A DNA stretch of 64,000 nt from Escherichia coli (lineage in GTDB: Bacteria > Pseudomonadota > Gammaproteobacteria > Enterobacterales > Enterobacteriaceae): assembly GCF_009931435.1 (NCBI RefSeq), contig NZ_CP043414.1. One strand, given 5' to 3'. Numbering within the stretch: the stretch's first letter is position 1; every line of letters starts with the position of its first letter. The position numbers are program-made. This document shows positions 3,001-6,000 of the stretch, piece by piece.

Positions 3001-6000
3001 TCCGCGTTAGACCTAATTCTATCGGAAATAACTACTATATTTCAGGGTATCTTAATTCCATCCATGGCAAAATCACATTGATGAATATGTGTAAAAGTAT
3101 TGTTGGCATGGCTAATATTAATGCACAGGAATTGCAGAATATAGAGATATTAATCCCACCTAAGCATCTACAAGATGAGTATGAGATTATTTATAAAAAA
3201 ATAAAAAAAGGACTAAGCATTTATGATAAAAGCGCAATGCAACTTCAACTTTTAGCATCAAACCTATCGAATAAATATTTCATGTAAGGTTCATTATGAA
3301 ATTAACTAAACTTGTACTTGAAAATTTCAGATCTGTTAGAGAGCGGCAGGAAATTGATTTTGCACCTGTAACATTACTATTGGGGCCAAACAGCGCGGGC
3401 AAGACTACTATTTTAATTGCATTATTTTATCTTCAACAAATATTAGACCGTGAGCAGTGTGATCCTATATATTTAGAAGCTATGGGGAACAGGCGCATAG
3501 ATGGATTTAGATCTCTAGTCCATAATGGGGATCTGAATAATGTAATTACTATTGGTATCGGTTTCGATCCTGAACAAACAATAGGTGTAGAATATAAAAC
3601 ATATTTAGAAGAACTTGGTGATATTTTCGATATTCATTTTATAAAAATGAAAGACATTGCAGATGAAACTGAAAAGGTTTATGTAGAATTTAAAATCGCA
3701 TGGTCACAATTGCACAGAGCAGCATATATAAAGAACTATGCTGTTTCTATAAATAATGAATTTATTGGAGAGCTAAGTAATGATGAGTATACTAAATCAT
3801 CTTTAGTAAATAGATTGAACTTTACTCATCCGTTGCTTCTTCCTATTGATTATAATTTATGGCTTGAATCTATTGATAAGGAAGGATTAGATACGATTGC
3901 CAGTGAATTTGAAATATCTTTAAATGACTTAATTCCTGGCTTAGAACGTAATAAAAGTGGTGCAACAGAGCGAGTAAAAACTGTTGATTATATATTTGAA
4001 GAAGATAAAGAAAAACCAATGTTTCCTGTTTTTTTAAAGACGAAAATTGGTGCGTTACCTCAACTGGGAAGAACTGTTGATACAAATTTGAAAGTTTTTG
4101 ATATATCCGAGCCAGTTGAGTATTTTAATCGAGATATAATCACCAGAGTGCTAACGCAAGTTTTTACTTCTCCGTTAGATAAATTAAATAATTATTTAAA
4201 GGCTAGCGTATCTATTGGACCGTTAAGAATTATACCTGATTCTTCATTTACGCCAAATCCTTATCCAGAACAAAATGGATGGTTTGATGGTACATCAGCA
4301 TGGGATAAGCTGTGTTTATCTCAACAAAATGATAGTGATTTGATTAAAAAAGTAAGTGATTGGTTTTCCAATAGAGATAAACTAAACACTAATTATAATA
4401 TATTTAGTGGAGGAGAATTTGATATAAAAACCTCCCCTCAACTTTTAGGTCTGAAAGATAATGTTTACTTCTGTAAAATAGATTCAAGCCAAATGTTATT
4501 TCCAAATCAAGTCGGTGTCGGATTAACTCAGATAGCACCTCTTATTATTGCAGCCAATATAGTTCAGGATGGATTAATTGCTATAGAGCAGCCTGAGCTA
4601 CATATTCATCCCGCTTTACAACTCGCTGTAGGTGATCTGTTTACCCAATATCCCCTTGATGTTAAAAGACCTATGTTTTTAGTCGAAACACATAGTGAGC
4701 ACATTTTGCTTCGAATTTTAAAAAGAATTAGACAAACAACGGACAATGAATTACCTGAATCAAATTACCCAGTAAAACCTGATTTTATATCAGTGATCGT
4801 TTTCGAGGATAATAATGGTTCGACTGTTACTAGGAAAATAGATATTACTGATGATGGTGACTTCAAACAAAAATGGCCCAAAGGTTTCTTCGAAGAAAGA
4901 AGGGGAGAGCTTTTTTAATGTTCTACGAATGCGCCATTTCACCAGAGGCTTTGTTTGAGATCGCAATTGATCGGAGAAATTATCGTGACTTCATAAAAGG
5001 ATTTTCTACGGGCGGTAACTTTCTCTATAGTGAATTACCAAAGCTGAAGAGAAATAAAAAACAATTGCTTGGGCTATTAAATGCTAATCATAGTGAACTT
5101 CAAAAAAAACGATTAGAGGACCTTATTATTTTTTTGAAAAATAATAAGGTTAGTAGGGTTTATGATTATGTTGGTGACATGTCATGGTCAGATAACATCT
5201 CTGCTGTAAATCGAATTGAACAATTTGATCATGTAGTGAGTTCTACTCCTTGTGATAACCTTGATGTAACTAATATAGATGATTTCTTTGGGTTAAATTA
5301 TGCTCGGCAAAAAATTGTTGCTAGAATTGCTGAGGATATGATATCTATAATCTCACGCTTATTAAAAACATCAGAGCATATTATTATAGTTGACCCATAC
5401 TTTAGTGACAAACAAAGATGGTGGAATGTATTTATTTCATTACTTAGCGTTAGTGCTAATAACTCTTATAAAAAAAATTTAAAGATAGATGTTATATTTG
5501 ATGGGAGTAAAGAAAACTCCCCAACGGTGAATTATTTGGCTAATAAGTTGAACCGCGAAAACCTTGTCTTTCCAGACGATTTTAAATTATCAGTAACATT
5601 TAAGTCTTTAACTTCTCGCGAGGGTAATGAACGTCTGCATAATAGATATGTTCTTTCTAATGTTGCTGGAGTTTGTTTCATGCATGGTTTAGATGAGGGA
5701 GAAGGAACGGATGATGTCTCAATTTTGTCGAAAGAGGGATATAATAAAAGATGGGAACATTACACTACGAATAATGTTTTTGATTTAATAGAAGAGCGTG
5801 AAGTTATATGTTAAGTATTTCCCTTACTGTTTTCAATTAAATCCTACAAACTTATTAGGACCCTTTAAAATTTATTCAACACGCCAATAAAAAATCTAAT
5901 TCTATTAATCTTGACCTGGTCTATCAAAATGATAGACCAGGCTTCTGTTATCTACATTACTTCTAGTGAAATAGCCAACCAATCGTCCCTATAAGGCAGG

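Follow-up and report, generated by a model that had tools for sequence, protein, structure and literature searches.

A perfect 12-bp inverted repeat located downstream of a restriction/defense operon of E. coli was found to be conserved as a pairing hairpin. Its most likely role is to mark where the RNA of this operon, which runs head-on into an integrase gene, has its 3′ end. We assign a rough probability of 0.6 to the reading that the palindrome is a 3′-end-forming RNA stem-loop, which would work as a terminator (weak intrinsic, or bidirectional), as a barrier to exonucleases on a Rho-terminated transcript, or in both ways. The host operon is arranged as hsdR-hsdM-hsdS/ABC-ATPase/partner, and its features are given below by position in the window (the whole 64-kb stretch of DNA that was analyzed).

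28-426, + strand: 3′ end of hsdR, type I restriction-modification
490-2124, + strand: hsdM, type I restriction-modification (hsdM and hsdS together, 490-3287)
2121-3287, + strand: hsdS, type I restriction-modification
3296-4918, + strand: ABC-type ATPase (AAA_15; PADLOC PDC-M55A; NsnB- and AriA-like)
4918-5814, + strand: partner protein, last gene of the operon (298 aa; weak NsnC-like hit, no Pfam family)
5815-5914, + strand: 3′ untranslated region, from the partner stop to the hairpin; G-poor, fast-evolving, and with indels (from alignment and composition)
5899-5927, − strand: candidate sigma-70-like promoter, −35 TTGATA (5927-5922), 17-bp spacer, −10 TAGAAT (5904-5899); 10 of 12 matches
5915-5941, + strand: hairpin, left arm CCTGGTCTATCA (5915-5926), loop AAA (5927-5929), right arm TGATAGACCAGG (5930-5941) (from sequence, folds, covariation, and RNAalifold)
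5942-5957, + strand: tail following the stem; CTTC, rich in C/U, varies, and TGTTATCTACAT (5946-5957) is the same in all variants
6037-6221, − strand: 3′ remnant of a P4-type tyrosine integrase gene, convergent with the operon; stop codon (TCA on the + strand) at 6037-6039

The palindrome was described in the first-pass annotation as a perfect 12-bp repeat with a 3-nt spacer about 100 bp after the partner gene, and this description was confirmed, with the repeat starting 100 nt 3′ of the partner stop codon (5812-5814). It is thus positioned 3′ of the last stop codon of the transcription unit, with no + strand gene after it, and lies between the convergent stops of the partner (5814) and the integrase (6037), 95 nt past the latter. 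Folding calculations, which the same annotation had proposed as a check, revealed a + strand RNA hairpin of −19.6 kcal/mol that was far beyond the shuffled controls (z = −5.37; 0 of 200 shuffles equally good). The − strand RNA was predicted to fold at −21.2 kcal/mol (z about −5, as for the + strand) and the single-stranded DNA at −12.3 kcal/mol (z = −5.8). The stem has G-C pairs at 6 of its 12 positions, including the base, and is closed by a short loop. The window was found to contain three perfect inverted repeats with arms of 12 bp or more and a loop of 3 to 8 nt, compared with 0.03 expected from first-order Markov simulations, and the palindrome was the sole strong hairpin of the convergent intergenic region. 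A simple terminator scan with a looser consensus rule also listed it.

In RefSeq the partner gene is placed at 4918-5814, with an ATGA overlap with the ATPase gene, while a longer open reading frame (4873-5814) is not the annotated one. Sequence searches of the partner protein against Pfam, NCBIfam, and PDB gave no match, and the candidate role of the partner as a DNA-binding regulator was dropped. With a mean pLDDT of 48, the AlphaFold model of the partner was of insufficient quality for a fold search. Domain searches of the operon proteins detected no DNA-binding domain and no TetR-family match, with the partner having no assigned domain. The integrase gene, a remnant in the window, has its full length of 422 aa in relatives from Citrobacter and metagenomes and is intact at loci L006, L015, and L016. 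In strain CFS3292, a phosphorothioate-dependent restriction endonuclease was observed in place of the restriction-modification module. An Rfam search of positions 5000-7200 at a permissive E-value gave no match, and an Rfam search of the whole window at the gathering threshold identified tRNA-Sec and an attI/AAC_AAD leader, both located elsewhere. None of the small open reading frames around the palindrome was conserved; a 21-codon frame starting at an ATG within it was found to be frameshifted in Enterobacter.

Conservation of the pairing was determined from 11 sequence variants of E. coli, Kosakonia, Citrobacter, Enterobacter, and metagenomes, all of which kept the hairpin and were predicted to fold on both strands. 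The palindrome was found to evolve at about the neutral rate (identity 0.82, compared with 0.80 to 0.82 for third codon positions of the flanking genes) with its pairing kept. When 8 variants were compared, 91.6% of the cells were paired and 4 pairs had both sides changed, a result as high in 1 of 500 shuffles. With all 11 variants, 87.6% of the cells were paired, both sides were changed in 5 pairs (10 cells), and the covariation score was 0.214 versus 0.106, with 0 of 500 shuffles reaching 0.214; pairing fell to 20-37% when the partner position was slid. The Enterobacter version (CCGGGACTATCA-aaa-TGATAGTCCCGG) is likewise a perfect 12-bp palindrome, two double substitutions removed from that of the window. 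RNAalifold analysis of the whole intergenic alignment identified the hairpin as the main conserved structure, predicted on both strands. The positions of the outer arms covary rather than stay conserved, while the inner 7 pairs show hardly any variation (12 of their 14 columns are invariant, compared with about 42% of the columns of the neutral spacer); included here are the inner hexamers CTATCA/TGATAG, which are the same in nearly all 11 variants. This near-invariance could reflect a sequence-specific recognition and not pairing alone. Departures from the common form were (i) L017, in which the pyrimidine tail is gone, the loop is flipped to TTT, and the arms have grown to 17 bp; (ii) L048, in which the arms are extended to 14 bp; and (iii) single uncompensated mismatches in L004, L026, and M22546. 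In strain M22546 the stem carries two uncompensated changes and the partner is annotated solely as a 92-aa fragment, a single case that fits relaxed constraint. G-U wobble pairs were considered as an indicator of the strand and then dropped, as the variants disagree: C. koseri favors the + strand, and Kosakonia and L048 favor the − strand.

Genome-wide distribution was examined in 5,426 E. coli genomes and one genome per other species. BLAST searches with a 76-nt region and the Enterobacter-type variant detected the palindrome in 257 of the 5,426 E. coli genomes, in each case at this locus, with two places per genome in just 4 of the carriers and one in the others. Carrier strains include E. 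coli FORC 064 (NZ_CP022664.1) and O26 strain 97-3250. The further genomic copies that the first-pass annotation had suggested looking for were therefore absent from these 5,426 genomes outside this locus. A dispersed repeat of the REP/BIME type was ruled out by this single-locus distribution together with the one copy in the 64-kb window. Searches of plasmid and phage collections gave no palindrome match. Scanning of genome contigs with a flank-anchored pattern revealed just one genuine new locus, in Enterobacter, beside four chance matches, and a metagenome scan revealed 16 true loci, two new variants among them. Every copy of the five-gene module that adjoins the integrase was found to keep a hairpin at the same place, with a folding energy of −13 to −26 kcal/mol; the sources of such copies were E. 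coli, Kosakonia, C. koseri, Enterobacter, and metagenomes. The Salmonella copies of the module were without the hairpin.

The sequences flanking the stem were analyzed for features of transcript ends. A Rho-independent terminator has a run of about 7 to 9 U directly 3′ of its stem, to which the RNA 3′ ends map. In the window, the tail CTTCTGTTATCT has 5 U among its first 8 positions, is interrupted, and has C at +1; the tail as scored, CUUCUGUUAUCU, likewise has 5 U in its first 8 nt and C at +1. The relatives have 3 to 5 U, often with CCC beside the stem, and no variant has a clean U-tract. The absence of a clean U-run that was noted earlier was thus borne out and extended to every variant. 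The nT tail score was 0.4 to 2.1 across the variants, below the threshold, but the rrnB T1 control failed as well. A score of the d'Aubenton-Carafa type was negative in all variants but is given little weight, because the rrnB T1 positive control was negative too. The 100 nt between the partner stop and the hairpin (5815-5914) contain 6% G with a C/G ratio of 3.3, and their mean pairwise identity among the variants is 0.72. Downstream of the hairpin, at 5942-6100, C is 25% and G 14% (C/G 1.74). The + strand RNA around the hairpin is thus richer in C than in G on both sides, at ratios of 3.3 upstream and 1.5 to 1.7 downstream.

We infer that the palindrome is transcribed as the 3′-terminal stem-loop of the hsdRMS-ATPase-partner mRNA and sets its 3′ end. 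RNA polymerase that moves past the partner gene would transcribe the G-poor untranslated stretch of 100 nt and then the 12-bp hairpin. The hairpin alone would be at most a weak intrinsic terminator, since its tail is just a broken C/U run. Two routes may then lead to a 3′ end at this site: (i) Rho would act on the untranslated C-over-G RNA near the hairpin, after which 3′-5′ exonucleases would trim the transcript to the hairpin and the mRNA would be protected; or (ii) in relatives with an intact integrase, polymerases from the operon would collide head-on with those from the integrase gene at a place set by the stem-loop, which is predicted to fold equally well on the − strand. Convergent transcription is doubtful in the window itself because the integrase is a 3′ remnant there. 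The operon terminator proposed as one possibility in the first-pass annotation is partly supported, as a terminator-type hairpin, by its position at the end of the unit between convergent genes, the compensatory pairing in 11 variants, and the RNAalifold prediction; given a U-run that is poor in every variant, this support does not extend to a canonical strong intrinsic terminator. A U-tract-independent 3′-end hairpin, either a Rho-dependent 3′-end protector or a convergent-gene bidirectional terminator, appears by analogy to fit better. As a counterpoint, L017 has lost the tail, flipped the loop, and lengthened the arms, such that the palindrome itself is what persists and not a unit of hairpin plus U-run.

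The features of L017 also bear on whether the palindrome has any function of its own. A DNA quasi-palindrome could be homogenized by intrastrand template switching, with one arm copied from the other during replication, and this would mimic compensatory evolution. We regard this explanation as unlikely, though it would account for the inverted loop of L017 (AAA to TTT), whose right flank is an inverted copy of the left, for the longer arms of L048, for the uncompensated mismatches in L004, L026, and M22546, and for the neutral rate of the palindrome sequence. Loop flips are, however, also known in functional 3′ hairpins, such as those of chloroplast 3′ UTRs, and the hairpin is kept in every integrase-adjacent variant of four genera with zero losses. 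Conservation of the inner hexamers greatly exceeds that of the neutral spacer, and functional hairpins are expected at a place such as this, where a transcription unit ends between convergent genes. That the palindrome instead acts as a DNA recombination or processing site, either as the core site of the adjacent tyrosine integrase or as a cargo-swap boundary at an integrase-linked hotspot, appears highly improbable. The palindrome adjoins the integrase gene, and the cargo varies by strain as in CFS3292, but the homology break between cargo types was located at 6029-6033, just beyond the stop codon of the integrase and about 90 bp away from the palindrome, and the Salmonella break falls at the stop codon of the partner. 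Core sites of tyrosine recombinases have a strand-exchange region of 6 to 8 bp, for which the 3-bp center is too short, and no second, partner site was found in the window, within 20 kb upstream, among the loci, or in the 5,426 E. coli genomes.

The binding site for a dimeric protein that was proposed as an alternative in the first-pass annotation received little support, although parts of the sequence are consistent with it. In this explanation, which we consider distinctly improbable, the palindrome would be an operator overlapping the −35 element and spacer of the candidate − strand sigma-70 promoter, from which antisense transcription would enter the partner (effector) gene at its 3′ end. 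The arms are perfectly symmetric about a short center of 3 bp, a symmetric site would be unaffected by the loop flip of L017, and the near-invariant inner hexamers are the same as the half-site hexamers of tetO1/tetO2 as read from Tn10 in locus L001. The candidate promoter matches at 10 of 12 positions in the window and overlaps the palindrome; its −10 element is TATAAT, TAGAAT, or TAAAAT in 7 of 9 variants, including a perfect TATAAT in L010, L015, L016, and L048, with zero indels between it and the palindrome. However, promoter-like matches of such quality occur about once per kb in the AT-rich DNA here, the −10 element has been lost from L002 and is weak in L017, and downstream on the − strand there is no conserved open reading frame and no Rfam RNA. 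Second sites in the window were at chance level (4 matches with at most 2 mismatches compared with 1.6 expected); none was found within 20 kb upstream of the operon, with one site per locus, and no other copy was present in any of the 5,426 E. coli genomes. Furthermore, the outer arms covary, which is unlike the conservation or independent drift predicted for an operator, and the domain searches found no DNA-binding domain in the operon proteins, with the partner lacking an assigned domain and a usable model. Less probable still is the more specific proposal that the palindrome is not an RNA element but the operator of a near-consensus − strand promoter, where a dimeric protein, possibly with a TetR-like recognition of half-sites at wider spacing, gates antisense transcription into the NsnC-like effector gene. 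If true, an operator would suggest antisense control of a defense effector gene, one that would belong to a Menshen-like ATPase/effector pair joined to a type I restriction-modification operon. The consensus sites of FNR, IHF, Fur, FadR, and hix were also considered, and none appears to fit. Overall, the terminator-type reading is better supported than the protein-binding reading.

As a 3′-end stem-loop the palindrome is an element of ordinary kind, with little significance beyond annotation, where it gives the probable 3′ limit of a horizontally mobile defense operon that combines type I restriction-modification and ATPase/effector genes. It does provide a clean, small example of a hairpin with its pairing kept by compensatory change and the canonical U-tract absent. 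When compared with known systems, the likeness to tetO1/tetO2 of Tn10 is limited to the identical half-site hexamers CTATCA and TGATAG, and may be due to chance; the tetO center is 1 bp and not 3 bp, the module has no TetR-family gene, and the palindrome is at the 3′ end of an operon whereas tetO lies between divergent promoters. With canonical Rho-independent terminators, the palindrome shares a stable stem with a G-C base and a short loop after the last stop of the operon, but its U-tract is interrupted and has C first (CUUCUGUU), with CCCUCUGU or AGCAAGUG in the relatives. Bidirectional terminators between convergent gene pairs, where the 3′ ends of the two transcripts overlap, have been described (Ju et al. 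2019, as outlined in Wang et al. 2022, bioRxiv 10.1101/2022.10.23.513370), and in the features outlined there the palindrome appears similar, as one stem-loop predicted to fold on both strands between two stops and without the canonical intrinsic sequence. The integrase here is a 3′ remnant, however, and this model would suit the relatives with an intact 422-aa gene. In E. coli Rho-dependent transcripts, steady-state 3′ ends are found directly after stable stem-loops that have no U-tract (PMC6061677). Such ends depend on Rho and on trimming by PNPase/RNase II, and a rut region high in C and low in G directly follows the stem-loop. The downstream C/G excess at the palindrome is moderate (1.5 to 1.7) and the likeness is one of sequence and predicted fold, yet the palindrome resembles these protective structures as a stable stem-loop 3′ of a gene, without a U-rich run and within untranslated RNA richer in C than in G. 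The hairpin thus fits the growing view that stem-loops without a U-tract define many of the 3′ ends in E. coli.

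The palindrome at 5915-5941 lies between converging genes, with the partner gene's stop codon 100 nt away on one side and that of an integrase remnant 95 nt away on the other. The features of this E. coli region are listed by coordinate and strand.

28-426, + strand: hsdR 3′ end (operon gene 1 of 5)
490-2124, + strand: hsdM (gene 2 of 5)
2121-3287, + strand: hsdS (gene 3 of 5)
3296-4918, + strand: ABC-type ATPase (Pfam AAA_15; PADLOC PDC-M55A, NsnB and AriA-like)
4918-5814, + strand: partner, 298 aa (no Pfam family)
5915-5926: palindrome left arm, CCTGGTCTATCA
5927-5929: palindrome centre, AAA (3 nt)
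5930-5941: palindrome right arm, TGATAGACCAGG
6037-6221, − strand: P4-type integrase 3′ remnant (stop at 6037-6039)

The first-pass annotation had described a perfect 12-bp inverted repeat with a 3-nt spacer, about 100 bp after the partner gene and lacking a clean U-run, and all three points agree with the sequence: the last + strand gene stops at 5812-5814, 100 nt before the repeat begins, and the repeat is followed by a broken pyrimidine run, CTTCTGTTATCT. RNA folding, suggested there as a check, gave −19.6 kcal/mol for the + strand (z = −5.37; no shuffle as good) and −21.2 kcal/mol for the − strand, with −12.3 kcal/mol as single-stranded DNA. The 64-kb window contains only three perfect inverted repeats with arms of 12 bp or more and a 3- to 8-nt loop, vs 0.03 expected from Markov simulations. 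Another of these, at 5120-5150, has 14-bp arms (ACCTTATTATTTTT-ttg-AAAAATAATAAGGT) and the same 3-nt centre geometry; it lies within the partner coding sequence (codons for DLIIFLKNNKV), folds at −11.4 kcal/mol as RNA, and is kept in L002, L004, and the Salmonella copies (with wobble changes) while degraded in L006, L015, L016, and L017. The third, at 20755-20785, has 12-bp arms and a 7-nt loop (CGGTCATCGACC-tgatcgt-GGTCGATGACCG). Overlapping TCGATCGA palindromes were also found clustered (tcgattttgtcgatcgattcgatcgaatttt) at 6330-6357, upstream of a 122-aa ORF (6498-6866), and appear in the terminator scan as stem 6339-6355 plus ATTTTCTCTT.

In E. coli genomes that carry the integrase remnant with other cargo, homology was detected only from about 6029-6033 rightwards; thus, the palindrome is part of the defence cargo, not of the integrase side, and is not at the swap junction. 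Homology between differing-cargo E. coli genomes begins within 5-8 bp of the integrase stop codon, and strain CFS3292 encodes a phosphorothioate-dependent restriction endonuclease in place of the R-M/ATPase module; the remnant (window 6029-6037; L003, 5800-6005) marks a cargo-swap hotspot. Within the cargo, the ATPase matched NsnB (3e-37), PDC-M55A (1e-40), and also AriA in PADLOC, and the partner gave a weak NsnC match only (E = 0.003). Judged from these matches, the ATPase and partner (3296-5814) appear to form a Menshen-type NsnB/NsnC module that lacks NsnA and is attached to a type I R-M operon. Partner homologues form a small and very rare family (17 clusters at 74-99% identity among 5.8 billion proteins), and the AlphaFold model of the partner was unusable (pLDDT 48); by eye, IIIVDPYF and LHNRYVLSN near its C terminus suggest a possible degenerate PLD-type fold. 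Elsewhere in the window, an Rfam AAC_AAD_leader/attI match (28058-28136, − strand, 73.9 bits) indicates a class 1 integron, and the sole tRNA is tRNA-Sec (selC; 38973-39067, − strand), a classic island integration site.

The five-gene module was also recovered from Kosakonia cowanii (L004), Citrobacter koseri (L006), Enterobacter genomosp. O (L010), a divergent E. coli strain (L002), and metagenome assemblies (L015-L018, L026, and L048), in every case running into a P4-type integrase; L006, L015, and L016 carry the full-length, 422-aa form. A hairpin occupies the homologous position in every one of these integrase-adjacent modules, with folding energies between −13 and −26 kcal/mol whichever strand is folded. 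Two Salmonella modules with no adjacent integrase (partner 74-77% identical) have neither a palindrome nor a terminator-like site downstream, where their sequence is unrelated to that of the window.

Hairpin variants at the homologous position
Window: CCTGGTCTATCA-aaa-TGATAGACCAGG
Enterobacter (L010): CCGGGACTATCA-aaa-TGATAGTCCCGG, perfect again, two pairs changed on both sides
C. koseri (L006): TTGGGACTATCA-aaa-TGATAGTCCCGG
E. coli IGC (L002): GGAACTATC-aaaac-GATAGTTCC
L017 (metagenome): CTTGaTCGGGACTATCA-ttt-TGATAGTCCCGAgCAAG, flipped loop, arms lengthened to 17 bp
L048 (metagenome): 14-bp arms, one mismatch

The stretch from the partner stop to the L017 hairpin also contains a MITE-like insertion of about 150 bp (3930-4080) with terminal inverted repeats AAGAGCCTATCCCA...TGGGATAGGCTCT. 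In L002 (IGC_RcoliRes, 7095-7130), the partner stop is lost (TAA to CAA) and is followed by a fourfold GATTTA tandem repeat, and the annotated partner is lengthened to 305 aa. Homology ends exactly at a CTAG in the right spacer (5963-5966) in two independent loci, metagenome L018 (about 4060) and E. coli strain 98193 (L054, about 225), a pattern that IS insertion at this tetranucleotide could explain; in strain DXMF6-3R, an IS1 is annotated in the 5700-6300 region.

Mean pairwise identity was 0.82 for the palindrome and 0.82 and 0.80 for third codon positions of the partner and integrase genes, so the palindrome sequence drifts at about the neutral rate (left spacer 5815-5914, 0.72; right spacer 5942-6036, 0.85). 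Pairing is kept despite this drift. The variants are a small set of mutually related sequences. Across eight of them, 91.6% of cells pair, 4 of 12 pairs changed on both sides, and the covariation score was reached by only 1 of 500 shuffles; across 11 variants and a 14-pair structure, 87.6% of cells pair, five pairs show double changes (10 cells), and the score was 0.214 vs 0.106, a level reached by none of 500 shuffles. Pairing fell to 20-37% when the 3′ partner was shifted by 1-3 columns (11 variants), and RNAalifold selected the hairpin on both strands of the whole intergenic alignment. Intrastrand template switching can mimic compensation in quasi-palindromes, and the flipped loop and copied flank of L017 look like such an event. 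A non-functional, self-homogenising quasi-palindrome seems to us unlikely. The inner seven pairs hardly vary (12 of 14 columns invariant, vs 42% in the left spacer), a pattern compatible with stronger selection in the middle of the stem or with recognition of the sequence itself. Just past the variable tail, TGTTATCTACAT (5946-5957) is invariant in all variants within a variable spacer and includes TTATCTACA, an 8/9 match to the DnaA box consensus TTATCCACA.

Recognition by a DNA-binding protein, the other reading offered in the first-pass annotation, would suit the perfect symmetry and the inner hexamers CTATCA/TGATAG, which are invariant in nearly all variants and identical to those of tetO1 (ACTCTATCATTGATAGAGT) and tetO2 (TCCCTATCAGTGATAGAGA), read directly from a Tn10 copy in L001; the tetO centre, however, is 1 bp rather than 3 bp, and an operator does not predict the covarying outer arm positions. 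On the minus strand, the palindrome contains the −35 (TTGATA, 5927-5922) of a promoter-like site; 17 bp away, its −10 (TAGAAT, 5904-5899) reads TATAAT, a perfect match, in four relatives, and no indels occur between −10 and palindrome. However, this AT-rich cassette yields a match of such quality roughly once per kb, L002 has lost the −10 and that of L017 is weak, and neither a conserved ORF nor an Rfam RNA lies downstream on the minus strand. Domain searches gave no DNA-binding domain hit for any operon protein, a check left incomplete by the partner, which has no assigned domain. The proposed search for further copies yielded no second site and no regulon-like set: the window holds one copy, and further matches to the conserved core CTATCANNNTGATAG in the window do not exceed chance; no further site lies in the 20 kb upstream of hsdR, and each related locus has exactly one. 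The 76-nt region surrounding the palindrome was present in 257 of 5,426 complete E. coli genomes, always chromosomal and at this locus (two places in 4 genomes only). The Enterobacter variant as query returned the same 257 E. coli genomes and no others, and 72,556 plasmids and 50,697 phage records gave no match. On balance, an operator appears improbable. A dispersed repeat is ruled out by the single locus and single window copy. A recombination site is highly improbable, as the 3-bp centre is too short and homology breaks elsewhere than at the palindrome.

Of the two readings first offered, the terminator was the better, though probably not as a canonical U-tract terminator; we put the probability that the palindrome is a 3′-end-forming stem-loop of the defence operon at roughly 0.6. 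A scan with a loose rule listed it as terminator-like. All variants have a poor U-tract (3-5 U among the first 8 nt, CCC often beside the stem), and L017 has wholly lost its pyrimidine tail. A d'Aubenton-Carafa-type score was negative for all variants and is given little weight because the rrnB T1 control was also negative. The + strand around the hairpin is G-poor (C/G of 3.3 in the 100-nt 3′ UTR and 1.5-1.7 downstream). The hairpin, which is unannotated, is specific to one rare mobile defence module and is predicted to be an ordinary terminator-type 3′ stem-loop between convergent genes, which may be shared with the integrase gene where the integrase is intact. Steady-state 3′ ends of Rho-dependent E. 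coli transcripts lie just past stable stem-loops without U-rich tails, which shield these transcripts from PNPase and RNase II (Dar & Sorek 2018, PMC6061677), and bidirectional terminators of convergent gene pairs are described as requiring a stem-loop that sets where polymerases collide (Wang et al. 2022, bioRxiv 10.1101/2022.10.23.513370). Both classes fit a stable hairpin without a U-run.
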